Shown here in pieces: positions 3,902 through 64,000 of a stretch of 64,000 bases of DNA (positions within the stretch are counted from its first letter, which is position 1; every line of letters starts with the position of its first letter). Source of the stretch: an uncultured Chloroflexia bacterium (GTDB lineage: Bacteria > Chloroflexota > Dehalococcoidia > DSTF01 > JALHUB01); contig CAVXOY010000019.1 of NCBI GenBank assembly GCA_963763495.1, positions 64,211 to 128,210 on the forward strand. Reading direction: 5' to 3'. The notes below the pieces were generated by a model. That model was not told the DNA's origin. It made no database searches and worked only from the letters and a program-made list of their open reading frames with translations. Both the position numbers and the translations under genes were made by a program.

Positions 3902-5064
3902 CCGTAGACGAGGTCGCGCTCGATCAGCGCCCGCGAGACGATGACGCGATGGATCTGGCTCGTCCCCTCGACGATCATGAGCTGCCGGGCATCGCGGTAG
4001 TGGCGCTCCAGAGGGTGGTCACGCATGTAGCCCTGGGCCCCTAGGACCTGCAGAGCGTCCGATGACACCCTCACCGCCATCTCCGTGGCGAAGGCCTTGG
4101 CAATCGACAGCATGTGGGCGTCTCCGCGCTGGAACCGTCCCTGGTCGACGAGCCACGCCGCCTGATAGGTCAGCAGACGCGCTGCCTCCACCTGGATCGC
4201 CATGTCGGCGAAGAGGAACTGGATGGCCTGGAGATTGACGATCGGCCCGCCGAAAGCTTCTCGCTGACGGGCGAAGTCGAGGGCATAGGTGAGAGCGCCC
4301 TCCGCCAGGCCGACGCCGCGGGCGGCCACGATGGGCCGGATGCTGTTCAGCGTACCCATGACCGTGCGAAATCCCTGGTCTTCCTTCCCGCCCAAGAGGT
4401 TCGACGCGGACACCCGGCAGTCCTGAAAGGCGAGCAAGGCGGTGGCGACGCCGCGAACCCCCATCTTCTGATCGAGGCGGGCGACGGAGAAGCCGGGAGA
4501 ATCGGCCGGGACGACGAAGCCGGAGATACCGCGCGAGCCGGCAGCGGGGTTGGTCTTGGCGAATATGGAGACGTAGCCGGCGACAGCGCCGCCGGAGATG
4601 AAGGCCTTCTCGCCGTTTATCACGTACTCGTCGCCGTCGCGGACGGCGCGGGCCTTGATGTTGGCGGCGTCGGAGCCGGCATCAGGCTCGGTGAGGCCGA
4701 ATGCCGCCTTAGTCTCACCCCGCGCCACGGGAGGGAGGAATCGCTGCTTCTGCTCCTCCGTCCCACCGAGGACGATGGGCTGAGTAGGAAGAGCGGAGAG
4801 GAGAAGCATGAGCCCAGAGGAGCAGCAGTATTTCGCTACTTCTTCAACCGCCAGCGCGAGGGCGAGAAAGCCGGCGCCGCTTCCGCCGTACTCGGCGGGA
4901 ATGGTGAGACCGAACAACCCGGCGTCTCGAAAGACCTGGAATATGTCGTGGGGATACTCCTCTTTCTCGTCGATCTCGGCGGCCCGGGGGGCGACGCGCT
5001 CGCGGGCGATGCGCCGGGCGGTGTCACGGATCAGCTTGTGCTCTTCGGAAAGCTGGAATTCCAT
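3898..5064 (-). CDS. acyl-CoA dehydrogenase
   Basis: 388 aa with full-length resemblance to short/medium-chain ACADs (FGLTEPDAGSD, INGEKAFISGG, YMRDHPLERHYRDARQLMIVEGTSQI). Confidence 0.9.
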   Translation of the reverse strand: MEFQLSEEHKLIRDTARRIARERVAPRAAEIDEKEEYPHDIFQVFRDAGLFGLTIPAEYGGSGAGFLALALAVEEVAKYCCSSGLMLLLSALPTQPIVLGGTEEQKQRFLPPVARGETKAAFGLTEPDAGSDAANIKARAVRDGDEYVINGEKAFISGGAVAGYVSIFAKTNPAAGSRGISGFVVPADSPGFSVARLDQKMGVRGVATALLAFQDCRVSASNLLGGKEDQGFRTVMGTLNSIRPIVAARGVGLAEGALTYALDFARQREAFGGPIVNLQAIQFLFADMAIQVEAARLLTYQAAWLVDQGRFQRGDAHMLSIAKAFATEMAVRVSSDALQVLGAQGYMRDHPLERHYRDARQLMIVEGTSQIHRVIVSRALIERDLVYG

Positions 5065-5206: not shown

Positions 5207-5373
5207 CTCTTATCAAGAGTGGTGGAGGGCACGGCCCGACGAAGCCCGGCAACCAGTCTGGGGAGCCCAAACACAAGCGTTTCTCCTCCGATATGGTGCC
5301 AAGTCCGACCCTCGTAACGAGGGAAAGATGAGAGTTGGTTTCGCATAACTTCTCACACCACGAGGAGTTTTTT
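5207..5373 (+). promoter_or_regulatory. SAM-I (S-box) riboswitch with terminator-type expression platform
   Basis: CTCTTATCAAGAGTGGTGGAGGGCACGGCCCGACGAAGCCCGGCAACCAG...GGTGCCAAGTCC...GAAAGATGAGAG is a near-consensus SAM-I core; the P1 helix pairs 5207-5214 with 5327-5334. It is followed by the hairpin AACTTCTC-acaccac-GAGGAGTT plus a T-run (5347-5373). Confidence 0.92.
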
Positions 5374-5403
5374 GTTGCCTCCCATCAGAAGGAACGGAAC
5401 GGT

Positions 5404-6463
5404 TTGGAGACGATAAGCTGGTCAGAGGGGAGAGTCCGCCTTCTCGATCAGTCCCGGCTGCCCCTAGAGGAAGTCTATCTGGAGATCGACGACTGCCGGG
5501 GCATGGCGAAGGCGATCCGGGAGATGCGCATCCGCGGCGCCCCAGCCCTCGGCCTCGCGGCCGCCTACGGCCTGGCGCTGGCGGCCCGTTCCAGTCCCAC
5601 CTCCGACAAGCAGGCGCTCCTGGGCGATCTGGAGGCGGCGGCGCGAATGCTGGAATCGACCCGCCCCACAGCGGTGAATCTCGCCTGGGCGCTGAGACGC
5701 GTCCTCGGCGTGGCGCAGGCAGCATCGAGCCCGGAAGCGATCCGGGATGCCGCGCTCAGGGAGGCGCAGCGCATACATCAGGAGAACCAGGGAAGCAGAC
5801 GAACACATGGGCCGGCTGGGAGCGGAACTTATCGCCGACGGCGCCACCGTCCTCACCCACTGCAACACCGGCGCTCTGGCCACCGGCGGCTATGGGACTG
5901 CCCTGGGGGTCATCCGGGCCGCGCACGAGCAGGGAAAGGCGCTGCGAGTGCTGGTAGATGAGACGAGGCCCCTCCTTCAGGGAGCGCGGCTGACAGCGTG
6001 GGAGCTGCAGCGACTCGGCATCCCCGCCACCCTCATCGTCGACGCGGCCGCCGGCGGGTTCATGCGCCGGGGGACTGTGAGCTGCGTCCTCGTCGGGGCC
6101 GACCGCATCGCCGCGAACGGCGACGTCGCCAACAAGGTGGGCACCTATCCGCTGGCGGTCCTTGCCAAAGAGAACGGCGTGCCTTTCTACGTCGCCGCCC
6201 CGACCAGCACAATAGACCTCTCGCTGTCCAGCGGCGATGAGATAGCAATTGAGGAACGTTCGCCGGATGAGGTTACGACGCTGGCGGGCAAGCGGCTGGC
6301 GCCGGAGGGGATAGCCGTCGCTAACCCCGCTTTCGACGTCACGCCGCACGGCTACATCTCGGCAATCGTCACGGAGCGAGGGATCGTGCGGGCACCCTAC
6401 CGACAGGGACTGGAGCGCCTGTTCACGGCAGCAATCGGGGCCCAGACACGGCAGGCTGGGTGA
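5404..6463 (+). CDS. mtnA: methylthioribose-1-phosphate isomerase, one frameshift near 5785 as sequenced
   Basis: [19 protein letters not shown]...IRGAPALG sits in frame 1 and [22 protein letters not shown]...[18 protein letters not shown]...AFDVTP in frame 2. I chose the TTG at 5404 because the track's ATG at 5335 lies inside the riboswitch. Confidence 0.85.
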
Positions 6464-10584: not shown

Positions 10585-10620
10585 CCCGAACACCGCTTCA
10601 ATGAACTGGAGGAGGAACAG

Positions 10621-11882
10621 ATGTCGACAACGTTTATGAACTCGCCGTCCCTGATGCTTACGTCGGAGTCGGTCACGGAGGGACACCCCGACAAGCTGTG
10701 CGACCAGATCTCCGACGCCGTCCTCGACGCCATCATCGGGCAGGACCCGGTGGCGCGGGTGGCCTGCGAGACGGCGGCGACGACCGGCCTGGTCGTGGTG
10801 ATGGGAGAGATCACGACAAGCTGCTACGTCGAGATTACCGGCCATCGTCAGGAGACACGATCCGCCACGTCGGGTACACGCACGCGAAGTACGGCTTCGA
10901 CTACGAGACCTGCGGCGTCATGGTGTCGATCAAGGAGCAGTCGAAAGACATCGCCCAGGGCGTCGACCACTCGCTGGAGTTCCGCGAGCATCATCAGCGA
11001 GGACGAGGACATGGAGCACGGCGCCGGCGACCAGGGTATGATGGTCGGTTTCGCCTGCACGGAGACGCCGGAGCTGATGCCGCTGCCGATATCGCTGGCC
11101 CACAAGCTGTGCCAGCGGCTGGCGGAGGTGCGCAAGGACGGGACGCTGCACTATCTGCGCCCCGACGGCAAGTCGCAGGTGACGGTCGAGTACGTCTACG
11201 GCGTACCCAAGCGGGTGGAGGCGGTGGTGATCGCGGCGCAGCACGACACGGTGGTGAAGCAGGAGCTGCTGCACAAGGAGATCGAGGAGCTGGTGATCCG
11301 GAAGGTGATCCCGGCGCAGCCTGCTCGACAATGACACGAAGTTCTTCATCAACGCGACCGGACGGTTCGAGACGGGCGGGCCGATGGGCGACGCCGGCCT
11401 CACCGGGCGCAAGATCATCGTCGACACGTACGGCGGGGTCGCGCGGCACGGCGGCGGCGCTTTCTCGGGAAAGGACCCGACGAAGGTGGACCGCTCCGGG
11501 GCCTACGCCGCCCGCTACGTGGCGAAGAACCTGGTGGCGGCCGGGCCTGGCGGACAGGCTGGAGCTGCACGTCTCCTACGCCATCGGCGTGTCGCACCCG
11601 ACGTCGCTGTCGGTGGAGGCGTTCGGGACAGCGCGGGTGTCGGAGGATGAGATGCTGGCTCTATCCGAAAGGCACTTCGACCTGCGGCCGGAGGCGATCA
11701 TCCGGAGACTGAACCTGCGACGGCCGATCTACCGGGCGACGGCGGCCTACGGCCACTTCGGCCGCGAGGATATAGACGCGCCCTGGGAGAAGACGGACAA
11801 GGCGGATATCCTGCGTCGAGAGGCGGGGCTGAACGCGGCGCAGGTCAAGGCAGAGCGAGCAGCGCTGCGGGCCGACCGCTAG
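10621..11882 (+). CDS. metK: S-adenosylmethionine synthetase, about five frameshifts as sequenced
   Basis: MetK sequence continues across all three frames: [50 protein letters not shown]...[70 protein letters not shown]...AAYGHFGRE. Switches occur near 10837, 10852, 10985, 11320 and 11545. Confidence 0.9.
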
Positions 11883-52951: not shown

Positions 52952-53470
52952 CTACTCGTTCTCCCAACCCGGCGGCTCTATCCTCCTCACCCCCGCCAGG
53001 GCAGCGTCGCCGAGGGCCGACAGCAGTTCTCTCATGGGCTTCCCCAGCACGGGGTGCGCCAGGTCGGGGGCAAGCTCCGCCAGGGGCACGAGGACGAAGG
53101 CCCGCTCCGCCAGCAAGGGATGGGGAATGACAAGGTCTTCTTGCTCCAACACCCGGTCGCCGTAGAGGAGGATGTCGAGGTCGATGAGTCGCGGCCCCCA
53201 GCGCGGCCCGGGACGGCGGCCGATCGCGAACTCGATCTCCTTGAGGTGACGGAGGAGGGCCTCCGGTTCCAGCGCCGTGACGATCCGGCAGACGGCGTTG
53301 TAGAAGGGGGGCTGCTCCTCTTCGCCGACCGGCGCCGTCTCGTACAGGGATGAGACTTCCTCCGGCCGCGCCAAGGGGCTCAGGCGGCGGAGGGCTTCCC
53401 TCAGATTGGCGGCGCGATCACCGAGATTGGAGCCAAGCCCCAGATAGACCGCGGGCGATTCGTTCGACAT
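52952..53470 (-). CDS. folK: 2-amino-4-hydroxy-6-hydroxymethyldihydropteridine diphosphokinase
   Basis: VYLGLGSNLGDR...PRLIDLDILLYG...IPHP. Confidence 0.92.
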   Translation of the reverse strand: MSNESPAVYLGLGSNLGDRAANLREALRRLSPLARPEEVSSLYETAPVGEEEQPPFYNAVCRIVTALEPEALLRHLKEIEFAIGRRPGPRWGPRLIDLDILLYGDRVLEQEDLVIPHPLLAERAFVLVPLAELAPDLAHPVLGKPMRELLSALGDAALAGVRRIEPPGWENE

Positions 53471-53477
53471 GGCGGCC

Positions 53478-54303
53478 TCATCTCAAGACGGCGTCGGCCA
53501 TGCGGCAGACCTGCACCATCTCCTTGACGTCGTGCACGCGGACGATGTCGGCGCCGTGGGCGACGGCGATGGCAACCGTGGCAGCGGTGCCCAGAAGCCG
53601 CTCCTCGACCGGCAGATCGAGCACCGCGCCGATGGTCGACTTGCGGGAGGTGCCGACGAGTAGGGGCAGGCCCATATCCCTCAACTCTCCCAGACGGCGG
53701 AGCATCTCCAGGTTCTGCTCCGGCGTCCAGCCAAAGCCGAAGCCGGGGTCGATGATCAGACGCTCGCGGGGGATGCCGGCCGCCGCCGCCAGGCCGATGC
53801 TGGTTTCCAGGCCGCTGCGAACGTCAGCGATCACGTCGCTGAAGGGGCGGCCCCGCTGGTTGTGCATGATGACGGCGGGAACAGCGAACCGCGCCGCCAC
53901 GGCCGCCATTTCCGGGTCTTGGCGGAGGCCGGAGACATCGTTCAGCAGGTGGGCGCCGGCCGCGAGGGCAGCCTGGGCTACGCCCGCCTTGGTGGTGTCG
54001 ATACTGATAGGGAGGTCGACGGCCGTGAGCAGGCGCTCGATGACGGGCACGCACCCGTCCGATCTCCTCGTCAGCGGTCACGGCATCAAAACCGGGGCGG
54101 GTGGACTCGCCACCGACGTCCAAGATGTCGGCGCCTTCTTCGGCGAAGCGCCGCCCCTGGGCGACCGCCGCGTCCACGTCGTAGCCCAGGCCATCGCCGG
54201 AGAAAGAGTCCAGCGTTATGTTAAGGATTCCCATCACATAGGTGCGGCTGCCCCACAGGAACTCGCGGCCGCGGATGGTCAGCGGTGATGGACTTACTGC
54301 CAA
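53478..54303 (-). CDS. folP: dihydropteroate synthase, one frameshift near 54055 as sequenced
   Basis: MGILNITLDSFSGDG...ADILDVGGESTRPG is in ORF 53824..54303. The sequence continues with VPVIERL...PISIDT...INDVSG...DPGFGFG...SRKS in ORF 53478..54050. Confidence 0.9.
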
Positions 54304-54421
54304 AAGAGCCCTCCTAACAGTATGGAGCGAATTCTATCAGCGGCGGTCGGGGGCGACAAGCAAGAAAGCCTCAGGTGGCCCAATCCTGGGGGAGAAGGTA
54401 AACTGGGCCTATTCTATCCCC

Positions 54422-55684
54422 GTGGGTGAGGACTTGAACGAGCAGGCAGGCCAGCGGTCGCTCACGATCAGCATCTCGCTTGCTCATGCGGTGGTGCACT
54501 GCATAGAGCTGACCTACGCCGCCCTGCTGCTGCGCATCGGCGTCCAGTTTGGGGTGGACAAGCTGGCGCTGGGGTTTATCGCCAACGCCTTCGCTCTCGC
54601 CTTTGGCGTCGGTGCCCTGCCTTCGGGTGTGCTGGTTGACCGGCTGGGCTCGCCCCGCGTGCTGCGGGTCTGCTTCCTGACGGCGGCGGGAGCGGCCCTT
54701 CTGGTCGCGTTCTCGCCCTCGCCGGTGATGCTGGGAGTGTTCCTGACGATCCTCGGCCTCTGCATCGGGCTGTACCACCCGGCGGCGATGTCGCTGATCG
54801 CCCAGGGAGCGGAGCGACGAGGGCTGGTGCTGGGCTACCACGGCATGGCCGGGAACATCGGGGTCGCACTGGCGCCGGCAATCGCCCTCGGGTTCGCGGC
54901 GACGGTGGGATGGCGCTGGTCCTACGTCTTCCTGGCGGGCCTTGCTTTGGCGATGGTCGTGTTCCTCCAGATTATTCGCCTGCCCACGGCGCCGGCGGTC
55001 CGCCAGCGAGCGAGCGCGGCAGTGACGGCAGCGATGCAGAAGACGGCAAAGGTATCGATAGCGGCTCTCGCCCTGATATACATGGCCTACCTGCTCAACG
55101 GCTTCATCTACCGAGGGAGCATGACCTTCATGCCCACTCTCATCGAGGAGCAGGTGCACATCCACATTTTGGGCATCGATGAGACCGCTCTCGCCGGCTC
55201 TTTGACGACGCTGGCGCTGCTCACGGGCGGCGCCGGCCAGTATCTCGGCGGCAGCCTCTCCGACCGGGGCTCGCTGGAGCGCCTGGCTACGCTGATGGCG
55301 CTGGCGCTGCTGCCGGCCCTGCTGCTCATGGGGATGAGCGGCGGACTGCTCCTGGTGGGGGCGGCGGCGGTCTTCGTCTTCTTCAACTTCGCCGGTCAGC
55401 CGGTCTACAACATCCTCTTGGCGAATTACGTGCCCGGGACGGCGCTGGGGCGGAGCTATGGTCTCTCCTTCTTCGCCAGCTTTGGGTTGGGCTCCACCGC
55501 GGCCTCTTTCTCGGGGCTGCTGGCGGACAGGTGGGGCACGTCGTCGGTCTTCCTGGCGCTGGCGGTGTTCGGGGCAGCGGTGCTGGCGCTGGCGGGCATG
55601 CTCTGGCGGCTCTCCTCGCAGCGGCCGTTGCGGGGAGGGGCCGCGGGGGGTACGATCGATAGGACGTGGGAAGCGCCGGGCTAA
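54422..55684 (+). CDS. MFS transporter
   Basis: About 12 predicted hydrophobic helices and the loop motif GVLVDRLGSPRV. The start is uncertain; I chose GTG 54422 so that it does not overlap folP. Confidence 0.75.
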   Translation: MGEDLNEQAGQRSLTISISLAHAVVHCIELTYAALLLRIGVQFGVDKLALGFIANAFALAFGVGALPSGVLVDRLGSPRVLRVCFLTAAGAALLVAFSPSPVMLGVFLTILGLCIGLYHPAAMSLIAQGAERRGLVLGYHGMAGNIGVALAPAIALGFAATVGWRWSYVFLAGLALAMVVFLQIIRLPTAPAVRQRASAAVTAAMQKTAKVSIAALALIYMAYLLNGFIYRGSMTFMPTLIEEQVHIHILGIDETALAGSLTTLALLTGGAGQYLGGSLSDRGSLERLATLMALALLPALLLMGMSGGLLLVGAAAVFVFFNFAGQPVYNILLANYVPGTALGRSYGLSFFASFGLGSTAASFSGLLADRWGTSSVFLALAVFGAAVLALAGMLWRLSSQRPLRGGAAGGTIDRTWEAPG

Positions 55685-55707
55685 CGGGACGGCTGAGAGA
55701 GGTCGAG

Positions 55708-56214
55708 ATGAAACGAAAGGTCACCGTCGAAGGGGAGGGGCTGCGATTCAGCGCCGCCCACATGACGACGATAGGCGACAAGGCGGAGCCGCTGCACGGC
55801 CACAACTATCGGGTGACGGTGTCGCTGGAGGGGGACCTGACGGCGGACTCCTGGGTATTCGATTTCGTGGCGCTGCGACGGCTGGCGCGCCGTCTCTGCG
55901 CCGAGCTTGACCACCGCTTTCTTCTCCAGCGTGAGAGCCGCGTCCTTCAGGCGCAGGAGCACGGCGACGAGTGGGAGATAACCGTCGCGGGCCGCCGCTA
56001 CGTGATCCCCAAGGCGGACGTGGTGGCGCTGCCGATCGACAACGTCACGGCGGAGCGGCTGGCGGAATGGCTGAGCGGCCGGCTGAAGGACGAGTTGAGG
56101 GCGGCGGGCGCCAAGAATCTGACATCTATCAGCGTGGGTGTCGAGGAGGCGCCGGGCCAGGCCGCCTGGCACAGCGAGGAGTTCGGCCAACTACCGGGTT
56201 ACGGCCGAACCTAG
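55708..56214 (+). CDS. 6-pyruvoyl-tetrahydropterin synthase / QueD-family (COG0720) protein lacking the QueD catalytic Cys
   Basis: RFSAAHM...DKAEPLHGHNYRV. The HGH zinc motif is present, but the position of the E. coli QueD Cys (HKCGRLHGH) reads DKAEPLHGH. ATG 55708 is preceded by GAGAGG. Confidence 0.75.
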   Translation: MKRKVTVEGEGLRFSAAHMTTIGDKAEPLHGHNYRVTVSLEGDLTADSWVFDFVALRRLARRLCAELDHRFLLQRESRVLQAQEHGDEWEITVAGRRYVIPKADVVALPIDNVTAERLAEWLSGRLKDELRAAGAKNLTSISVGVEEAPGQAAWHSEEFGQLPGYGRT

Positions 56215-56414
56215 GCGACGAGAGGGATGGACTCCTCCTCAATCAGGCGAAGGAGCTGGGCGCGGATGCGGGCGACGGTCTCGCTATCGGGCACGAGTTG
56301 GGTCTTCTCCTGCTGCGATACGAAGAGCGGGCGCAGCCACTCACCGTCGTCGAAGGTCTCTGCCGGCTTGTAAGGTTTCGTTCTTGTAACCACCATCAAT
56401 CCCTCCAGGGTCAT
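56211..56414 (-). CDS. hypothetical small protein
   Basis: 67-aa ORF convergent with the PTPS-like gene. No family recognised. Confidence 0.3.
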   Translation of the reverse strand: MTLEGLMVVTRTKPYKPAETFDDGEWLRPLFVSQQEKTQLVPDSETVARIRAQLLRLIEEESIPLVA

Positions 56415-56484
56415 AATCGGCAGATCCGGGAGAAGTCTGTGCCCTATTACCGCGTCGGAGACGGGCAGGGTTCAGATTCCGCGC

Positions 56485-56514
56485 TTGACATAGGGTGCGA
56501 GCGTCCGATAATAT
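56485..56514 (+). promoter_or_regulatory. sigma70-like promoter of the sulfur-carrier operon
   Basis: TTGACA (56485-56490), a 17/18-nt spacer, then ATAATA/TAATAT (56508-56514). Confidence 0.5.
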
Positions 56515-56628
56515 CTTCGCAACTGTTGTAAACGGGAGAACCTACAAGTGGCACCTTCAGGCGTGATGGCGATGCCTAGGCCCGAGCGAATCGGGCCGTC
56601 GTAGACCGTGTAATCGGGTAGGTGCTGG

Positions 56629-56663
56629 CAGCCGGCGGATACCAGTGCCGGCTGTTTTGTTTT
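56629..56663 (+). terminator. intrinsic terminator inside the 5' leader of the thrC-like gene (attenuator/riboswitch expression platform)
   Basis: CAGCCGGC, a 10-nt loop, GCCGGCTG, then TTTTGTTTT, ending 18 nt before ATG 56682. Confidence 0.7.
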
Positions 56664-56681
56664 ACAATAGGAAACGCCATC

Positions 56682-57932
56682 ATGTCATATGCCAAAGCTT
56701 TACGTTGCCGAGAATGCGGCCGAGAGTATCCCCTTGACCCCATCCACGTCTGCGAGTTCTGCTTCGGCCCCCTGGAAGTGGACTACGACCGGGAGGCGCA
56801 GCGGAAGGCGATCAGCCGGGAGAAGATAGAAGCGGGCCCCCCGTCGATCTGGCGTTACCGCGACCTCCTCCCCTGTGACGCCGAGCAGGCAGTAGACCTC
56901 AGCGTCGGCTTTACGCCTCTGATGCATGCCCGCAACCTGGGCGAGGCGCTGGGGCTGCGTCACCTCTACGTCAAGAACGATTGCATGAACCCCACCTGGT
57001 CGTTCAAGGACCGCGTGGTGGCGGTGGCGAGCACGAAGGCGCTGGAATTCGGCTTCGATACGCTGGCCTGCGCCTCCACCGGCAACCTGGCGAACTCCGT
57101 CGCCGCCCACGCCGCCCGCGCGGGCATGAAAGCCTACGTCTTCGTGCCCTCCGACCTGGAGTCGGGCAAGCTGCTGGGCTCGGCGATCTACGGGGCGACG
57201 CTGGTAGCCGTCGACGGCACTTACGACGACGTCAACCGTCTCTGCGCCGAGCTGGCCGACAAGTACAAGTGGGCATTCGTGAACATCAACGTGCGGCCCT
57301 ACTACTCGGAGGGCAGCAAGACGCTGGCCTACGAGGTCGCCGAGCAGCTCGGCTGGCGGGCCCCCGACCACTGCGTGATTCCGATGGCCAGCGGCTCGCT
57401 GCTGACCAAGATCTGGAAGGGGCTGGACGAGTTGAGCAAGCTGTGGCTCCTCGACAGCGTCCAGACCAAGATCTCCGGGGCTCAGGCGGCGGGCTGCGCG
57501 CCCATCGTCAACGCCTGGCAGGCGGGCACGCTGAACATCCGGCCGGTGAAGCCCCAGACGATAGCCAAGTCGCTGGCGATCGGCAACCCCGCCGACGGCT
57601 ACTACGCCCTGCGGGTGATGCAGGACACGGGCGGCTCGGCGGTGGCCTCCAGCGATGAGGAGGTGGTTGAGGGGATCAAGCTCCTGGCGGAGAGCGAGGG
57701 CATCTTCGCTGAGACGGCGGGCGGGGTCGTGATCGCCGGGCTGAAGCGGCTCGTCGAGTCGGGCCGTGTCACGCCGGACGAGCTTGTGGTCGCGTTTATC
57801 ACCGGCGCCGGACTCAAGACACAGGAGGCGGTCGCCGGAAAGATAAGAGAAGCAGTCCACGTTACACCCACCGTCGCCTCATTCGAGCAGGCGATCGACG
57901 CGCGCGGCGAGGTCCTTGAGGGAGGAAGCTGA
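56682..57932 (+). CDS. threonine-synthase-family PLP enzyme with N-terminal Cys4 zinc ribbon
   Basis: CRECG...CEFCFG zinc ribbon and PLP-lysine motif NPTWSFKDR. I prefer the start MSYAKAL (56682), because the track's GTG at 56622 lies inside the terminator hairpin. Confidence 0.85.
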   Translation: MSYAKALRCRECGREYPLDPIHVCEFCFGPLEVDYDREAQRKAISREKIEAGPPSIWRYRDLLPCDAEQAVDLSVGFTPLMHARNLGEALGLRHLYVKNDCMNPTWSFKDRVVAVASTKALEFGFDTLACASTGNLANSVAAHAARAGMKAYVFVPSDLESGKLLGSAIYGATLVAVDGTYDDVNRLCAELADKYKWAFVNINVRPYYSEGSKTLAYEVAEQLGWRAPDHCVIPMASGSLLTKIWKGLDELSKLWLLDSVQTKISGAQAAGCAPIVNAWQAGTLNIRPVKPQTIAKSLAIGNPADGYYALRVMQDTGGSAVASSDEEVVEGIKLLAESEGIFAETAGGVVIAGLKRLVESGRVTPDELVVAFITGAGLKTQEAVAGKIREAVHVTPTVASFEQAIDARGEVLEGGS

Positions 57933-57998
57933 GAGTCCCTCTACCGAGCAGCGGCAAGCTAACCGGCGGAACGGCATGATGGCATAGAGGTGAAAGAG

Positions 57999-58241
57999 AT
58001 GGCAAGACAACGCGTTAAGTTCACCTTTCCCCAGGAACTGATTACCCTTCCCATCATTCATGAACTGGGGAAGAGCTTCAATCTGGTGACGAACATCCGG
58101 CGGGCGGACGTCACGGAAGACCGCGGCTGGGTCATCCTCGAACTCGATGGAGAGTTGGCGGAGATCGAGCGCGGCCTCGAGTGGGTGGCCGCCAAGGGCG
58201 TGCGGGTAGACCCGGTACAGGGCGACATCATCGAGGGCTAG
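57999..58241 (+). CDS. NIL-domain (ferredoxin-fold, MetN-C-terminal-like) small protein
   Basis: VKFTFPQELITLPIIHELGKSFNLVTNIRRADVTEDRGWVILELDG. ATG 57999 is preceded by GAGGTGA; the track ORF starts at 57990. Confidence 0.6.
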   Translation: MARQRVKFTFPQELITLPIIHELGKSFNLVTNIRRADVTEDRGWVILELDGELAEIERGLEWVAAKGVRVDPVQGDIIEG

Positions 58242-58342
58242 CTCTCGACCTGTCGCAGCCGGCAGGCCCGCCTTACGGCTATATCTGAGCCCGCTTCCCC
58301 AACGAGGGAGCGGCTCCTGATCGCAGACAAAGGGAGGACACC

Positions 58343-58616
58343 TTGAGCATCAACGTAAGAATCCCCGCTCCTCTGCGCAGCCTCACCGGCAATCAGGCCT
58401 TGGTGAGCACCGGCGGAGGCTACCGTGGGAGAGTGTATCGACCATCTGGAAAGCGAGCATCCGGGGGTCAAGGAGCGCTTGTGCGACGGCGGCGAGCTGC
58501 GCCGCTTCATCAATATATACATCAACGGCGAGGACATCCGCTTTCTGTCCGGCTTGGAGACTTCCCTCAAGGATGGAGACGAGGTGAGCATCGTGCCGGC
58601 GGTGGCCGGCGGCTAA
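58343..58616 (+). CDS. cysO: CysO/MoaD-type sulfur-carrier (ubiquitin-like) protein, one frameshift near 58420 as sequenced
   Basis: (M)[25 protein letters not shown] then (frame switch) [64 protein letters not shown]-stop. This closely resembles M. tuberculosis CysO (RFVNIYVNDEDVRF...ILPAVAGG). Confidence 0.85.
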
Positions 58617-58744
58617 GACCGGGCCGCATCTCGTCCTCGTCCTGAGCCTGCGCGTCTTCTTCTCCGCGTCTCGCAGGGGACGATTCTCCCACATGTAGCA
58701 ACGGGATGGGGAGGCGCGCGTTATCATAAGTTAGGAGGTTACTC

Positions 58745-59815
58745 ATGGCGGTGGAGGTACATATTCCCACCCCGTTTCGAAGACTAACGGGCGGCCGGGC
58801 CGATATCGACGGCGACGGCGAGAACGTCAGCGACCTGCTGGTTGACCTGGAAAAGCGATTTCCGGGCTTCCGCGGCGTCATGTTCGATAACCAGGGCCGG
58901 ATACCGCCTCACATCAAGATCTACGTCAACAGCCAGGACATAGCCTCCCTGGGAGGGCTGACGACGCCGCTGCAGGAGGGCGACCGGGTGGCGATCATCC
59001 CCGCCACCGCCGGCGGCAGCGCGGGCGGTCCCGACTCTCCCCTCACACCCGAGCAGAAGGAGCGCTATTCCCGCCATATCGTCCTCCCCCACTGGGGCGA
59101 GGAGGGGCAGCGGAAGCTGGCGGCAGCCAAGGTGCTGGTCGTGGGCGCCGGTGGACTGGGATCGCCGGTGCTCATCTACCTGGCGGGGGCCGGCGTCGGC
59201 ACTTTGGGCGTCGTCGAGTTCGACACAGTAGACATCTCCAATCTGCCGCGCCAGATCCTCCATCACACGCACGATGTCGGCCGGCCCAAGGCGATATCGG
59301 CGCGGGAGAGCATCGCCGACAACAACCCGGACGTGAAGGTCGCGCTGCACGAGACGCGGCTGACGCGGGAGAACGCGCTGGATATCATCGCCGGCTACGA
59401 TATCGTGGTGCCGGCGGTCGACAACCTGGGGACGCGCTACCTGGTCAACGATGCCTGCGTTCTTCTCGGCAAGCCGATGGTGGAGGCGAGCGTCCTTGCT
59501 TATGAGGGGCAATGCACCGTATTCTTGCCGGGCAAGGGCTGCTATCGCTGCCTGTACGCAGCGCCGCCGCCGCCGGGGCTGATGCCCACGCCTGCTGAGG
59601 CGGGCGTACTGAGCATCCTGCCGGCGGTGATGGGCCCGATCCAGGCGATGGAGACGCTGAAGCTGATACTGGGGATAGGCGAGCCGCTCAGCGGGCGCCT
59701 CCTCCTGTTCGATGCTCTGACGATGGAGTTCCGGCAGGTGCGGATCAAGCGCGATCCCAACTGTCCGGTCTGTGGGGACAAGCCGACGATCAAGGCGCTC
59801 GTCGACTACGACTAG
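58745..59815 (+). CDS. fusion protein: CysO/MoaD-like ubiquitin-fold domain (aa 1-91, ends ...IIPATAGG) plus MoeB/ThiF-type E1 adenylyltransferase
   Basis: N-terminal part: MAVEVHIPTPFRRLTGGRA...IKIYVNSQDIASLGGLTTPLQEGDRVAIIPATAGG. Then linker SAGGPDSPLTPEQKERYSRHI. E1 part: VLVVGAGGLGSP, zinc CYRC...CPVC. There is no rhodanese domain, and PTPAEAGVL replaces the usual (S/T)C(A/V)EAGV. Confidence 0.85.
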   Translation: MAVEVHIPTPFRRLTGGRADIDGDGENVSDLLVDLEKRFPGFRGVMFDNQGRIPPHIKIYVNSQDIASLGGLTTPLQEGDRVAIIPATAGGSAGGPDSPLTPEQKERYSRHIVLPHWGEEGQRKLAAAKVLVVGAGGLGSPVLIYLAGAGVGTLGVVEFDTVDISNLPRQILHHTHDVGRPKAISARESIADNNPDVKVALHETRLTRENALDIIAGYDIVVPAVDNLGTRYLVNDACVLLGKPMVEASVLAYEGQCTVFLPGKGCYRCLYAAPPPPGLMPTPAEAGVLSILPAVMGPIQAMETLKLILGIGEPLSGRLLLFDALTMEFRQVRIKRDPNCPVCGDKPTIKALVDYD

Positions 59816-59838
59816 TTTGGCGGCTCGACCGCCGGCAG

Positions 59839-60753
59839 GTGAGACCCATGCTCTGTGAGCGGCTCATCGACCTGATTGGCAACACCCCGTTGGTGGAGAT
59901 GCCGCGGCTATCGCCTCGGCCGGGAATCCGCTTCTTCGCCAAGCTGGAGGGGCAGAACCCCAGCGGCAGCCTGAAGGACCGCATCGCCCTGTTCATGATC
60001 GAGCAGGCGGAGAAGCGGGGCGACCTGCGGCCGGGGATGACGATCCTGGAGGCGACGAGCGGCAATACCGGCGTCTCCCTGGCGATGATGGCGCGAATCA
60101 AGGGCTACCCGATCCGGGTGGTCATGCCGGACAACGTCAGCCGGGAGCGGACGCTGGTGATGCGGGCCTTTGGGGCGGAGGTCATCCTCACCGACGGCGC
60201 CAAGTACACCGACGGAGCGATAGAGCTGGCGAGTCAACTGGCAGCGGAGGACTCCTCCTACTTCCTCACCAGCCAGTTCTCCAACGCCGACAACCCCCTC
60301 GCCCACTACGAGACGACCGGGCCCGAGATCCTGCGCGACCTCGCCGACATCGATGTCTTCGTTGCCGGAACAGGGACAGGCGGGACGGTCAGCGGCGTCG
60401 GACGCTACCTGAAAGAGCATAAGCCGGGGACCAAGGTTGTCTGCGTGGAGCCGCCGCCGGACGAGCTGATCGAAGGGCTGCACACGCTGGAGGGGTTCCG
60501 GCCCGGCGTCCTCGACCTGTCGGTTATCGATGAGCGAATCGTCGTGAACCAAGCGGACTCCTTCGCCGCAGCGCGGGAGCTGGCGGAGACGGAGGGCATA
60601 TTCGCCGGGCCCTCCTCGGGAGCGGTGCTCCACGCCGCCCGCGTCATCGCCGAGAGGCACGAGAGCGGCAACTTCGCTCTCCTCGTGGGCGACGGCGGCT
60701 GGAAGTACCTATCGACGGGGCTTTGGGCGCCGCGATTCCCCCAGGCAAAGTAG
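59839..60753 (+). CDS. cysM: CysM-type cysteine synthase (carrier-thiocarboxylate-dependent type likely)
   Basis: IGNTPLV, PLP lysine NPSGSLKDR, and TSGNTG. Sits between the E1 and JAMM genes. The start is GTG 59839 or ATG 59848. Confidence 0.88.
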   Translation: MRPMLCERLIDLIGNTPLVEMPRLSPRPGIRFFAKLEGQNPSGSLKDRIALFMIEQAEKRGDLRPGMTILEATSGNTGVSLAMMARIKGYPIRVVMPDNVSRERTLVMRAFGAEVILTDGAKYTDGAIELASQLAAEDSSYFLTSQFSNADNPLAHYETTGPEILRDLADIDVFVAGTGTGGTVSGVGRYLKEHKPGTKVVCVEPPPDELIEGLHTLEGFRPGVLDLSVIDERIVVNQADSFAAARELAETEGIFAGPSSGAVLHAARVIAERHESGNFALLVGDGGWKYLSTGLWAPRFPQAK

Positions 60754-60761
60754 GGCAGTAC

Positions 60762-61193
60762 GTGTTCGAACTCCCGCGACGCTACGTCGAGGAGATCATC
60801 GCTCATGCCCGCGAGGCGGCGCCGAACGAGTGCTGCGGCATTCTTGCGGGCAAGGGCGGGCGGATCCTCAAGCTCTACCGCGCCGTCAACGCCGAGGAAA
60901 GCCCTTACCGCTATAGCATCGACGCGCAGGACCTCTACCGCATCTACCACGAAGTAGAGTCAGCGGGCTGGGAGTTCCTGGCGATCTACCACTCTCATCC
61001 CAGCGGCGAGGCTTACCCATCGGCGACCGACGTGGGTCTGGCGACCTGGACGGGGCCGGCGGGAATCGTCGATCTCTGGCCGAACACCCGCTACTTGATC
61101 GCTTCCCTCGCCGACGCCGACTCGCCGGTGATCCGGGCGTTCCTCATCCACGGCGGGCGCGTCACCGAGGAGACGCTGCGAATCGTAGGCTAG
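60762..61193 (+). CDS. mec: JAMM/MPN+ metalloprotease (Mec-like, carrier C-terminal processing)
   Basis: NECCGIL (Glu) and YHSHPSGEAYPSATD (HxHx7Sx2D JAMM motif). I prefer GTG 60762, just after the cysM stop. Confidence 0.85.
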   Translation: MFELPRRYVEEIIAHAREAAPNECCGILAGKGGRILKLYRAVNAEESPYRYSIDAQDLYRIYHEVESAGWEFLAIYHSHPSGEAYPSATDVGLATWTGPAGIVDLWPNTRYLIASLADADSPVIRAFLIHGGRVTEETLRIVG

Positions 61194-61318
61194 GCTGCTC
61201 CTCACAGCTTACCCTCGTTTTTGTCTATCCCCGGCGTTACTCCTCTCAGCCTTCTGTGATTCCTGCCGATACTCAACTAGGAGCAGGCATACCTTCATGG
61301 AAAGAGGGAAACTAGTGC

Positions 61319-64000
61319 GTGCCCAAAAGTAGAAGTCGGCAATCTCCCAGCGAAGCAACGCCCTCACGCCGCCAGGCAGACCTCGACGAGGTCTTGGCGT
61401 CTGCGGTTCGGCTTGCCTGCGATATCCTCAAGAGCGACAGCGCATCGATAGCGCTGGCCGATGAAAAGGGCGTTCTAGCCGTCCACACCCAACACGGTCT
61501 GTCGCCGCGCTTCGTCAGCCGCTGGCGGAAAAGGTCGAACGAGGGCCTCACCGGCATCGTCTTCCGGACCGGGCAACCGTACGTTTCCCCTGACCTCCTG
61601 GCCGATGAGCACTACAAGGGAACGGCCCTGACAAAGGAGGGGCTGCGGGCCCTCCTCGTGGTTCCTCTGAAGGTCGAAGACGCAGTGGTGGGCTGCCTCT
61701 ACATCGGTCAGAAGAACCGCCGCGATTTCTCATCCGAGGAGGTGCAGCTCGCGAGCCTATTTGCCGGCCACGTGTCGATGTCGATTGAGAGCGCCACCCT
61801 TCTGCAACAGGAGCGCGAACAGCGACGGCTCTCGGAGACGCTGCTGGATGTGGTGAGCGCGCCTTCCCTCAGCCTCAGCCTGCGGAAGGTCCTCATCAAG
61901 CTATGTCAATCGGTCCTCAAGCTCACGATCGGCGAGCGTTGCAGCATCTTCATGTTCAACGAGGACACTCACACGCTGGAGCCCGTCATGTCGCTCAGGC
62001 GCAGGGGTCGAGGATCCGAACATGTGGGATAAGTTGCGCGCCTCGGCCGGGCTCAACATACCCGAATTCAAGGGCATCGGCGAGGCAATCAAGGCCCAGG
62101 AACCTATCATCGAGGAGAACGCGCCGAGTTCGACCGTCATTCCCTAGTTTCTGGACAGAGACCTTTCGGCCTGAAGTCGGCGGCACTCTACCCCCTCGTT
62201 CATAGAGAGAAGACGATAGGGATGGCGGAGGTGGACTCCTTCAGCAGATTCGTCCACTTCCCGCGAAGGAGGTCGATGACGCTGGCCGCGATCGCCAAGC
62301 AGGCTGCGATCATCATCGAGAACGCCCGCCTTTTCGAACAGGAGCAGCGGCAGCGGCAAAGAGCCGAGGCGCTGGTAGAGGTGCTTACAGCCACCGCCTC
62401 CACTTACGGCCTAAAGAAGGTTCTCATCAAGCTCTGCCAGGCGGTCGTCAACCTCAGCGTGGGAGATCGCTGCAGCATCCTTATGACGGGTGAAGACGGG
62501 CGCTCGCTGATACCCGTCATGTCCCTGGGGATTGAGGATCAGGACCTCTGGCAGCGATTCCGCAACCCAGCGCCGGGGGAAAACGCAGCCGTCGCGCCGG
62601 AGCATCGCCGCCTGCAAGCCGCCATTGACACGTGGGAGAAGCCGATCGTCATGGAGGATGCGGCGAAATCAGGTCTGATGACACGCTGGTGGGTGGACAA
62701 CTTCAACTTGAAGTCGCTCGCTCTTTACCCGCTCAGGGTGAAGGATCGGACGATTGGAGTCATGACGGTGGACGCGTTCCGCCACCATGTGCATTTCCCC
62801 CAGGAAGAGATCGACACCCTGACTGCTGTCGCCAAGCAGGCGGCTGTGGTTATCGAGGACGCGCGCCTCTACGAGCAGGAGCAGCAGCAGCGGCAGAGGG
62901 CCGAGGCGCTGGCGGAGGTGCTCACGGCCACTGCCTCTGACCTGAGTCTGAAGAAGGTCCTAGTCAAGGTATGCCAGGCGGTGGTCAACCTCAGCGTCGG
63001 CGAGCGCTGCAGTGTCTTCCTGATGGACGGTGACCAACACCGTTTGGAGCCCGTCATGTCCATCGGCCCTGAGGACGACAAGCTCTGGCAGCGATTCCGC
63101 AATCCGCCCGCCAGCGTTGACCGCTCGCCGGGAACGAAGCGCTTCTTCGAGGCCGCAACCCGCTGGCAGAAACCCATCGTCGTCGAGGATGCGAAGAGTT
63201 CGCCGCTGGTGCCGGACTGGTGGGCAAAGACCTTCGACACCAGATCGCTCGTCTTGTACCCGTTGCGGGTAAAGGACAAAACGATAGGGGCGATGACCGT
63301 GGATACCTCCCGCGACAACGTTTCCTTCCCTCAGGAGGAGGTGGAGACGCTGTCCGCCGTTGCCAACCAGGCCGCCATCATAATCGAGAATGCCCGCCTC
63401 CACGAGCAGCTTAAGGAGCAGGCGATCACCGATCCCCTGACAGGGCTATTTAACCACCGTCACATCCACGAGCGCTTGGACGAGGAGTTCGCGCGGGCCT
63501 CTCGCAACGGTCAACCTCTCGCCGTTCTGATGATGGACATGGACAATTTCAAGTTCTTCAACGATACCCGCGGTCATCTTGTAGGTGATGAGGCTCTCCG
63601 CTTCGCCGCCGGGCTGTTCCGAAAGGCGCTACGGGTATCGGACATCGTCGGCCGTTACGGCGGCGATGAGTTCATGGCCATTCTGCCGGAGACGAGTCGC
63701 GAGGAAGCAGAAAGGACAGGGCAGCGGATAGTAGATCTCCTTGCTGAGCACCCCTTCTCGCTCGACGACTCAGGCCAGCAGGTGCCGCTGGAGGTCAGCA
63801 TCGGCGCAGCCTCCTTCCCCAGCGACACAGCCGAAAAGCAGGAGCTCATAGCTCTCGCTGACGAAGCGCTCTACGACGCGAAGCGCATGGGCGGCTCCCA
63901 GGTTGTTCCGGCTCACGCTGACAGCACGGCACCCGGAGTTTCGTGGAGTTACGGCTTCGGATTCCTGCACAGCCTGCTGAACGCCCTGGCCCACAAAGAC
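61319..64000 (+). CDS. four-GAF-domain diguanylate cyclase (GGDEF with I-site), 3' end beyond window; five frameshifts within GAF2 as sequenced
   Basis: GAF1 is in ORF 61319..62032. From about 62180 an unlisted open frame runs to base 64000 (no stop), carrying GAF2 (C-terminal part), GAF3, GAF4 and ...ITDPLTGLFNHR...RVSDIVGRYGGDEF...DEALYDAKRMG. Confidence 0.85.
61800..63410 (+). repeat. tandem domain-level repeat (three GAF units of about 530-540 bp)
   Basis: Long near-identical strings recur, e.g. 62341-62400 versus 62878-62937 (GGAGCAGC(G/A)GCAGCGGCA(A/G)AG(A/G)GCCGAGGCGCTGG...). The protein motifs LxKVLxKxCQAVVNLSVGxRCS, PVMSxG, LWQRFRNP and YPLRVKDxTIG repeat. Confidence 0.8.

Follow-up and report, generated by a model that had tools for sequence, protein, structure and literature searches.

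The question raised by this locus is what a gene of the threonine synthase (ThrC) family is doing at the head of a row of sulfur-carrier genes, when 'threonine synthase' is the public annotation of all its homologues. The locus occupies positions 56485 to 61193 of a 64,000-nucleotide stretch of DNA (contig CAVXOY010000019.1; hereafter the window, meaning the whole stretch that was analysed) from an uncultured Chloroflexia bacterium, and the nearest protein matches of the window are in Dehalococcoidia metagenome-assembled genomes (MAGs). A sequence-only reading had described six co-directional genes with short gaps behind an attenuator and had proposed that the ThrC-like enzyme is a carrier-dependent homocysteine synthase. 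Pfam and NCBIfam scans, together with the listing of open reading frames (ORFs), confirmed the domain identities of all six genes, which lie on the + strand in the same direction with intergenic gaps of 66, 101, 128, 32 and 8 nt in order; what had to be corrected was the length of the NIL-domain protein, 80 rather than 81 residues, and the state of the free carrier gene, which has the expected AGG-stop end and is not intact, being split between two frames by an extra C. The array is composed as follows.

56682-57932, + strand: ThrC-like pyridoxal-5'-phosphate (PLP) enzyme of 416 residues, with a PALP domain and an N-terminal four-cysteine zinc ribbon (Pfam, NCBIfam).
57999-58241, + strand: stand-alone NIL-domain protein of 80 residues, without cysteine (Pfam).
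58343-58616, + strand: free ThiS/MoaD-type carrier (MetO-like) ending AVAGG-stop, with a 1-nt insertion near 58419; the repaired protein has 90 residues.
58745-59815, + strand: ThiS-ThiF fusion, comprising a ThiS/CysO-like domain (residues 1-91) ending ATAGG, a short linker and a MoeB/ThiF-type E1.
59848-60753, + strand: CysM-type cysteine synthase of 301 residues counted from an ATG, in an ORF that opens at a GTG at 59839, with the PLP-lysine motif SGSLKDR.
60762-61193, + strand: JAMM/Prok-JAB metalloprotease of 143 residues, Mec/HcyD-like, with an alternative TTG start at 60723 overlapping cysM.
61191-61211, + strand: weak terminator-like hairpin closing the array.

In our assessment the locus probably encodes a thiocarboxylate-dependent route to both homocysteine and cysteine, and the argument for this begins with the first gene. 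Homologues of its product were collected in one scan of species-representative genomes and one metagenome scan, which yielded 160 loci with ThrC-like proteins 59-92% identical to that of the window; 80 of these are named genome loci, from Chloroflexota, Armatimonadota, Actinomycetota, Nitrospirota, Nitrospinota, Aquificota and Methylomirabilota, and over these seven phyla identities of 59-80% were obtained. When 21 representatives were aligned with four solved threonine synthases, identity averaged 62% within the family (minimum 49%) and 38% to the solved enzymes (maximum 42%), a neighbour-joining tree set the family cleanly apart from them, and 17 alignment columns were invariant inside each group yet different between the two. 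A PALP domain and the lysine motif SFKDR are present in the window protein, and the four cysteines of the zinc ribbon that had been read from the sequence are invariant in all 148 distinct family members. Numbered on the Thermus thermophilus enzyme and anchored at its PLP lysine, K61, the residues T88, N157, R160, Q164 and A194 correspond to L136, R205, Y208, S212 and K243 in 148 of 148 distinct members, S155 corresponds to N203 in 146 of 148, and the equivalent of N188 is Ser or Gly at position 237. The phosphate-pocket residues of canonical ThrC (T88, S155, R160 and N188) are therefore not kept in the ThrC-like protein, and R205 and K243 are new invariant positive residues of the pocket. We take S155, R160 and N188 of the T. 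thermophilus enzyme to hold the substrate phosphate; if so, the leaving-group pocket would have been rebuilt with relocated positive charges, which is what a gamma-replacement enzyme taking a protein-borne nucleophile might need. Judged by these alignments, the window protein is not a canonical threonine synthase and, rather than grouping tightly with such enzymes, belongs to a zinc-ribbon clade of its own with an invariantly remodelled pocket, one that fits the family of MetM-type carrier-dependent homocysteine synthases. MAGs labelled Aquifex aeolicus hold a ThrC-like paralogue 38% identical to 2ZSJ, the solved canonical ThrC of A. aeolicus, so that the Aquifex lineage appears to own both enzymes. 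Cysteate synthase, considered as another identity for the protein, was ruled out by a score of 73.5 bits against an NCBIfam cut-off of 324.9.

The regulation of the orthologues further supports the assignment. A SAM-I riboswitch, a sensor of S-adenosylmethionine (SAM), lies directly 5' of the ThrC-like gene in 17 genome loci (Rfam) and is also present upstream of the homologue from a cultured actinomycete, Micromonospora coriariae, which shares 56% identity with the window protein; an nhmmer profile built from the aptamers found matched 48 of 162 upstream regions. In an Actinomycetota MAG (L035) the ThrC-like/ThiS pair has upstream of it a T-box (3792-4090, 102.9 bits) with a specifier which, read against the Rfam consensus layout, is AUG (methionine), the next base being C where a purine is usual. 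Because orthologues sit behind SAM-I riboswitches or a methionine-specifier T-box, the ThrC-like/ThiS module is best placed in the methionine regulon and not in the threonine regulon.

The third line of support is the neighbourhood. Loci were annotated by phmmer with the window proteins as queries, and counts were made over the 136 loci that continue downstream for 1.2 kb or more. In 132 of these a ThiS gene follows the ThrC-like gene at no more than 1.8 kb, and in 106 a NIL gene is adjacent, so that the neighbourhood is strongly conserved, across at least seven phyla; among species representatives the association is distributed as follows.

Chloroflexota: ThiS in 21 of 21, NIL in 21 of 21.
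Nitrospirota: ThiS in 30 of 30, NIL in 29 of 30.
Armatimonadota: ThiS in 3 of 3, NIL in 3 of 3.
Nitrospinota: ThiS in 10 of 10, NIL in 0 of 10.
Actinomycetota: ThiS in 2 of 2, NIL in 0 of 2.

About 120 of 125 carriers beside a ThrC-like gene end in GG-stop. In Nitrospinota (L037, L043, L052, L054, L060-L062, L069, L075, L077 and related metagenome loci) the carriers next to the ThrC-like gene have 1-7 extra residues after the Gly-Gly and would need proteolytic maturation; the flanks examined yielded no JAB gene, however, and NIL is absent from these loci. Genes for CysM, E1 and JAB are found together with the ThrC-like module in a minority of Chloroflexota loci, and CysM and E1 genes in nearly all Nitrospirota and Nitrospinota loci, with JAB too in most Nitrospirota, a typical Nitrospira order being CysM-E1-ThrC-like-ThiS-NIL-E1-JAB. 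Co-location of a methionine and a cysteine module is thus common and not unique to the window. The identical six-gene order recurs in relatives whose ThrC-like protein is 81-99% identical to that of the window, and among the loci examined only Chloroflexota relatives had exactly this layout, ThiS-E1 fusion included. The two halves are 12 nt apart in L013 and L098, and in L007 a gene for an Rrf2-family regulator (4191-4631) stands between the methionine module and a cysteine module made up of two CysM genes, a ThiS-E1 fusion, an extra free ThiS and JAB, so that the six genes may not always form one transcription unit; co-transcription of all six is plausible in the window clade and not universal. 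The two halves of L007 appear to be separately controlled.

The closest known counterpart of the first three genes is the MetM/MetO system of Streptomyces albulus, reportedly the work of Hasebe et al. 2024 (Appl Environ Microbiol 90:e01247-24). MetM is described in the GapMind preprint as a ThrC homologue that makes homocysteine from O-phosphohomoserine and the thiocarboxylate of MetO (10.1101/2024.10.14.618325), and a SAM riboswitch is reported upstream of metM (PMC12172450). The window module shares with MetM/MetO a ThrC-homologous PLP enzyme paired with a ThiS-type carrier, the dependence on an E1 and a JAMM protease, and membership of a SAM/methionine regulon. It differs in having NIL as a conserved third gene, which the MetM sources consulted do not mention, in encoding the E1 and JAMM protein within the array instead of borrowing them from elsewhere, in an E1 that lacks a rhodanese domain and bears a fused carrier domain, and in a leader that, in the window clade, is an upstream open reading frame (uORF) with methionine codons and not a SAM riboswitch.

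A pathway can be drawn from these likenesses. The E1 would adenylate the free carrier at its C-terminal Gly-Gly, which sulfide or a persulfide would then turn into the thiocarboxylate, possibly through direct sulfide attack on the acyl-adenylate as has been proposed for HcyS of Wolinella. The ThrC-like enzyme would then eliminate phosphate from O-phosphohomoserine and add the carrier thiocarboxylate at C-gamma, following the chemistry of MetM/MetO, whereupon homocysteine would be freed from the carrier. CysM would perform the analogous beta-replacement on an activated serine, while the JAMM protease would cut the fusion after its conserved Gly-Gly to free the second, CysO-like carrier and may also hydrolyse carrier-amino-acid adducts, as Mec does. 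In the homocysteine pathway of Wolinella succinogenes (HcyS, HcyD, HcyF and MetY), reportedly described by Krishnamoorthy and Begley in 2011, the carrier thiocarboxylate is said to be the sulfur donor for homocysteine, a JAMM protein to mature the carrier, and the E1 to lack a dedicated sulfurtransferase domain. The window system resembles it in its thiocarboxylate carrier, its JAMM protease and its E1 without a sulfurtransferase domain, with sulfide a plausible donor; the two differ in the PLP enzyme, a MetY-type O-acetylhomoserine sulfhydrylase of fold type I in Wolinella and here a ThrC-fold enzyme of fold type II, presumably acting on O-phosphohomoserine.

In the cysteine half, the best solved matches of the window CysM are the M. 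tuberculosis CysM entries 3DWG and 3DKI (1.1e-77), ahead of enterobacterial CysM; the fused carrier domain, which had been correctly recognised together with its E1 without rhodanese, matches CysO (3DWG_C, 1e-13) and is 42% identical to the free carrier. The protease, likewise recognised from the sequence, matches JAMM-family entries of the PDB and the Prok-JAB model of Pfam (1.3e-22), and the JAMM motif H-S-H-x7-S-x2-D is visible in its translation ('HSHPSGEAYPSATD'). The E1 has a GAGGLG motif and two CxxC motifs; its Pfam ThiF match runs to residue 342 of 356, so that the protein ends 14 residues later, and its match to the MoeZ model stops at position 270 of 392. On these matches the fusion, CysM and JAMM proteins resemble the mycobacterial CysO/MoeZ/CysM/Mec route to cysteine, which was reportedly described in M. 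tuberculosis by Burns et al. in 2005. The likeness lies in the closest solved CysM, the CysO-like domain and the JAMM and E1 genes encoded alongside, and the differences in the fusion of the carrier to the E1, the lack of rhodanese, a His at the position of Arg220 of CysM and the presence of a homocysteine module in the same array. In each of the ten distinct fusions compared the GG falls exactly at the boundary of the fused domain and is followed by a variable linker, and a JAMM enzyme that cleaves a MoaD-MoaE fusion has been reported (PMC8832034); for both reasons release of the second carrier is plausible.

The remaining member of the array is the NIL protein, which the counts above make a conserved third partner of the ThrC-like/ThiS pair. 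Pfam NIL (PF09383) matched 40 of 40 family members, which have a mean column identity of 60%, with P18, R34 and A36 invariant, N32 and G43 nearly so, and N32 conserved in at least 90% of members. A single NIL sequence gave only insignificant matches against the PDB, and a profile of the 40 members matched there only the C-terminal regulatory (C2) domains of MetN, the ATPase of the methionine importer, the best being 3DHX at 6.2e-9; in this profile comparison N32 aligns with N295 of MetN, a residue presumably required for methionine binding and for methionine-dependent trans-inhibition. Methionine import and archaeal homocysteine synthesis are two settings in which the NIL domain recurs. The MetN C2/NIL domain (PDB 3DHX, 3DHW, 3TUI) is the only solved homologue of the family, the Asn of the N-I-x motif being the residue aligned to N295, and the window protein differs from it in standing alone at 80 residues without fusion to an ABC ATPase, in having the invariant R34 where MetN has Ile, and in a partner that is presumably an enzyme where that of MetN is a transporter. 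The NIL protein cannot carry sulfur or hold an iron-sulfur cluster, because the family is without cysteine. We infer that NIL is a small ligand-sensing subunit that would bind methionine or homocysteine and modulate the ThrC-like enzyme, and this is the weakest step of the model. In the literature nothing was found that links NIL proteins to sulfur-carrier systems, and a role as partner in such a module appears to be undescribed.

Several observations weigh against the proposed double pathway. In the window sequence the free carrier gene bears a frameshift, the E1 is without the rhodanese domain of MoeZ, and the window CysM has a His ('...EGLHTLEGF') where the M. tuberculosis enzyme has Arg220 ('...YALRNMDEGF'), a residue that Agren et al. 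reportedly identified in 2008 as the O-phosphoserine determinant. The cysteine modules of L007 and L014 contain an extra free ThiS of their own, and the fused domain may for that reason not be a working carrier. The ThrC-like protein exceeds the cut-offs of two NCBIfam threonine synthase models, TIGR00260 (286.6 bits, cut-off 167.1) and PRK08197 (312.4 bits, cut-off 303), the latter of which may itself derive from the ThrC-like paralogue, since its profile spans the zinc-ribbon region. Phmmer searches with two solved threonine synthases as queries, over all ORFs of the window and of 165 loci with their flanks, brought up none that canonical ThrC matched better, and the enzyme may be bifunctional, making both threonine and homocysteine. 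The link to the characterised MetM of S. albulus is moreover indirect and runs through the Micromonospora coriariae homologue as a proxy; with the Micromonosporaceae homologue as query, matches were obtained only in Micromonosporaceae and none in Streptomyces.

The model scores, the uniform public label and the lack of another thrC in the window would all suit an ordinary threonine synthase whose sulfur-carrier neighbours are incidental or reflect shared use of O-phosphohomoserine. We nevertheless regard this as most improbable: the family forms a separate clade with 38% identity to the solved enzymes, the equivalent of R160 is always Tyr in a pocket remodelled in 148 of 148 members, linkage to ThiS is near-universal (132 of 136), orthologues sit behind SAM-I or a methionine-specifier T-box with no threonine signal, and MetM is stated to be frequently misannotated as threonine synthase (10.1101/2024.10.14.618325). 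Equally hard to credit is that the carrier, E1 and JAMM protein serve ubiquitin-like conjugation of the SAMP/UbaA/desampylase type, or supply sulfur for a cofactor or secondary metabolite, even though the free carrier, once repaired, scores above the cut-off of the NCBIfam SAMP1 model (71.1 against 60 bits), the E1 and JAMM proteins match the UbaA and desampylase models, and CysO-type carriers also serve sulfur insertion into thiosugars and siderophores (4N6E match; PMC1779556). The UbaA and desampylase matches, at 313 and 81 bits, are below their cut-offs of 450 and 130, the genes sit between two amino-acid PLP enzymes, SAM and methionine signals regulate the module, and no biosynthetic tailoring genes were seen nearby in the window or in the loci of relatives. 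A rival to be taken more seriously, though we still consider it rather unlikely, has a single working carrier: the free ThiS would serve both the ThrC-like enzyme and CysM, the fused domain would never be released and would act as a built-in adaptor or regulator, and the JAMM protease would hydrolyse only carrier-amino-acid adducts. Such an arrangement would be in keeping with the additional free ThiS beside the fusion in L007 and L014, with the survey of Iyer et al. 2006, in which ThiF proteins with an N-terminal ubiquitin-like domain usually co-occur with a stand-alone ThiS and another role is proposed for the fused domain (PMC1779556), and with the report that in S. albulus MetO and the CysO pathway have Mec and MoeZ in common (10.1101/2024.10.14.618325). 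It leaves less well explained why every one of the ten fusions retains the GG exactly where the fused domain ends, ahead of a variable linker, as a cleavable and activatable C-terminus would need, why JAB accompanies the fusion wherever the contig is long enough, and why the domain matches CysO, and the cleavage of a MoaD fusion noted above provides a precedent for release. The double route to homocysteine and cysteine, with two putative carriers, is the reading that we retain. Clade separation, conservation of gene order and methionine/SAM-linked control thus support the function inferred in the sequence-only reading, and of the outcomes named there as fatal to the idea, the two that could be examined by computation, on the grouping of the ThrC-like protein and on the neighbourhood, both came out in its favour.

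How the array is controlled in the window is a separate question, as its leader is without the SAM-I aptamer (RF00162) and has a uORF with methionine codons in its place. The leader elements are these.

56485-56512, + strand: sigma-70-type promoter-like site (TTGACA, 16-nt spacer, GATAAT; 11 of 12 matches) with an implied start near 56519, its position kept in close relatives.
56548-56604, + strand: uORF for a leader peptide, (V)APSGVMAMPRPERIGPS-stop, with a GTG start and a GGGAG Shine-Dalgarno-like motif 9-10 nt 5' of it.
56560-56571, + strand: 5' strand of a sequestering helix, GGCGUGAUGGCG, overlapping the methionine codons and pairing with 56675-56686.
56566-56568 and 56572-56574, + strand: the invariant methionine codons of the uORF.
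56579-56597, + strand: GC-rich hairpin, GGCCCGA / GCGAA / UCGGGCC, beginning 4 nt past the second methionine codon.
56627-56665, + strand: terminator-like hairpin (56627-56656; 11 bp, 7 of them GC) followed by the U tract UUUUGUUUU, between the uORF and the first gene.
56675-56686, + strand: 3' strand of the sequestering helix, CGCCAUCAUGUC, which includes the start codon of the ThrC-like gene.

The leader announced by the sequence-only reading is borne out in a promoter, a structured 5' region (fold z = -4.1 against shuffles) and a terminator-like hairpin; no antiterminator appeared in folds constrained by a ribosome on either AUG or on the stop codon. The core of the leader, an AUG-NNN-AUG followed by a GC-rich hairpin, is a conserved Chloroflexota element located 75-190 nt (mostly 75-120) 5' of the start codon, occurring alone in about two dozen loci, the window included, and 3' of a SAM-I aptamer in some 27. 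Both AUGs are invariant in 30 distinct leaders, the middle codon (GCG, GUG, GUC, UGC, UUC, CUC, AUC) and the flanking codons vary, an in-frame start and stop are kept in every uORF subfamily with length differences in multiples of three, and many of the uORF starts have AGGAG or AGGAGG at 6-7 nt; MAALLGRMVMR, MSFPLGRMFMH, MTYHRMAMPRPERVGPPQADS and MMNGMMAMRRPEKVGP are examples of the peptides in relatives. The stems of the hairpin after the AUGs vary by clade with complementarity kept (GCCCCGG/CCGGGGC, GCCCCGAC/GUCGGGGC, GCCCUUC/GAAGGGC, GGGCCCGCU/GGCGGGCCC), and as they fall in different registers of the MAFFT alignment they are reported as stem variants and not as a formal count of covariation. 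In the window the duplex between the strand of the methionine codons and the start region has a predicted energy of -27 kcal/mol as compared to -10.2 for shuffles (z = -6), and in the clade without riboswitch the same strand pairs with the ribosome-binding site (RBS) or the start codon of the ThrC-like gene; over 46 distinct leaders the pairing of uORF to RBS beats 95% of shuffles in 23.

With a ribosome placed on either AUG, constrained folds freed the start region and left the terminator hairpin unchanged, and because a parked ribosome has this effect we favour translational attenuation, in which a ribosome stalled at the methionine codons would keep the start site of the first gene open. 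A trp-type transcription model was dropped in favour of start-site sequestration, which fits the leader better, as no antiterminator appeared with a modelled stalled ribosome. Translation of the uORF would thus set expression, shortage of methionine stalling the ribosome, in a manner comparable to ermC-type translational attenuation with trp-type control codons, the direction of control being deduced. The leader would accordingly sense the charging of methionyl-tRNA, sometimes in series with SAM sensing, or it may, as an alternative, encode an arrest peptide that senses free methionine. It resembles the trp and his attenuators in its short leader ORF with clustered codons for the end product of the pathway, and ermC in that the stalled ribosome would cover the very strand of the mRNA by which the downstream start is sequestered; it differs in that no alternation of terminator and antiterminator was detected and in the frequent position of the element 3' of a SAM-I riboswitch. 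Besides the missing antiterminator, it counts against this reading that in many leaders with both SAM-I and uORF the pairing of uORF to RBS is no better than in shuffles. No description of a methionine leader peptide, or of methionine control codons upstream of a methionine biosynthetic operon, was found in the literature, and the leader appears to be undescribed.

Two subfamilies deserve separate mention. The leaders of L013, L097 and L098 keep the terminator hairpin and methionine-codon uORF of the L016 type (L016, L096) and have a promoter where the aptamer would be, which looks like loss of a riboswitch in evolution with retention of the uORF. In L023, L024, L030, L031, L110, L113, L114 and L119, a SAM-I plus uORF subfamily located some 100-140 nt 5' of the ThrC-like gene, a conserved hairpin (CGGCCCA ... 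UGGGCCG) holds the Shine-Dalgarno motif and start of the uORF in its loop, and the uORF stops one codon past the second Met (G-R-M-x-M-x-stop), which recalls arrest peptides that act at a stop codon.

A different explanation of the leader is that it is not translated at all and represents a structured RNA binding a ligand or protein, for instance a riboswitch of a new kind or the site of a regulator, the AUGs being kept only for their pairing with the CAU/AUG of the main start. The 5' strand bearing AUGGCGAUG is indeed complementary to AUCGCCAU at the RBS or start in many clades, one subfamily, which forms a hairpin about the start of the uORF, keeps the third positions of its flanking GGC-CGA codons, compensatory changes are seen in the downstream hairpin, and the element often stands in tandem with SAM-I, as tandem riboswitches do. 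We consider it unlikely all the same, as the AUGs are invariant in the 30 distinct leaders around a variable codon and without G-U-tolerant substitutions, while in-frame starts and stops in every subfamily, often strong Shine-Dalgarno motifs and length changes in threes are marks of translation; nor did a search of the leader (56380-56720) against Rfam to E = 10 return a known RNA family, the only hit being a chance match to the Yfr1 sRNA (E = 3.7). Translational attenuation at the methionine codons is retained as the favoured reading of the leader. Joined to the inferred function of NIL, it leads to a wider proposal that is put forward only tentatively: that the MetM-type homocysteine synthase occurs in at least five phyla as a three-protein unit, with NIL as a methionine- or homocysteine-sensing allosteric subunit, and that the Chloroflexota operon is in addition governed by an undescribed methionine-codon leader sensing the charging of methionyl-tRNA, alone or in series with SAM-I, giving a two-signal control by SAM and charged tRNA-Met.

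As to the frameshift in the free carrier gene, the ORF at 58425-58616 covers only positions 25-76 of the Pfam ThiS profile, that is, the C-terminal two thirds, and the first beta-strand is read in a different frame, from a TTG at 58343. Near 58419 a single additional C is present in the window, which reads 'GGAGGCTAC' where L001, a metagenomic contig of 94% DNA identity, has 'GGAGG-TAC', and an intact carrier of 90-91 residues with an AGG-stop end is present in L001 (90 residues) and in every other relative. Frameshifts also split mtnA (5335-6463, two ORFs) and metK (10585-11647, at least two pieces) in the window, and the GAF/GGDEF gene at 61319-64000 has several indels relative to L001. Because the relatives are intact and these other genes are broken as well, the thiS frameshift is most likely an assembly artefact and not biology; the number of breaks, one of them in an essential gene, points to an indel-rich assembly rather than to pseudogenes. 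A programmed frameshift in thiS was ruled out, there being none in relatives and indels in several other window genes including metK.

The one SAM-I aptamer of the window lies at 5207-5334 (+ strand, 77.6 bits), and the genes 3' of it, to about 11650, are a mtnA-like gene (IF-2B family), a 238-residue ORF without assignment, and genes for a methylthioadenosine phosphorylase-type protein, a GNAT protein, S-adenosylhomocysteine hydrolase and metK, which is a methionine-salvage/SAM-cycle array. Directly 5' of the operon is a folate/pterin cluster (52955-56214) of HPPK, DHPS, an MFS transporter and 6-pyruvoyl-tetrahydropterin synthase (PTPS), also found beside the operon in L001, L002, L004, L008, L087, L088 and L090; it may be linked to the supply of methyl groups for methionine synthase. 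Between PTPS and the operon promoter a 67-residue ORF without Pfam match runs antisense (56211-56414, - strand); its counterpart is called as a gene in L001 (728-931), and small unassigned ORFs occupy the same place in L002 and L003. Downstream of the operon the close relatives encode a very large multi-GAF protein of about 1240 residues (L001 5834-9562, L004 12494-16228), and that of the window (61319-64000, + strand) has a C-terminal GGDEF diguanylate-cyclase domain.

The system thus joins two published pathways and is not categorically new; the suggestion that the combination had not been described was overstated, both halves being published and their co-location widespread, although the layout itself was met with only in Chloroflexota relatives. 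What look new are the NIL partner and the methionine-codon leader; with them, the substitutions that mark the pocket and the wide phyletic range hidden by a wrong annotation make the system worth following up by experiment. The carrier-dependent route from O-phosphohomoserine to methionine was described only in 2024 and in one Streptomyces, and the present data suggest that it is widespread in uncultured or hard-to-grow lineages, namely Dehalococcoidia and other Chloroflexota, Nitrospira, Nitrospinota, Aquificota and Armatimonadota, where the uniform label 'threonine synthase' misleads metabolic reconstruction and the prediction of auxotrophy. The substitutions that are invariant in the pocket offer a simple sequence rule by which the ThrC-like enzyme can be separated from ThrC, the NIL partner provides a testable handle on the roles of NIL domains outside transporters, and the methionine-codon uORF, sometimes in tandem with a SAM riboswitch, would represent a rare case of leader-peptide control for methionine.

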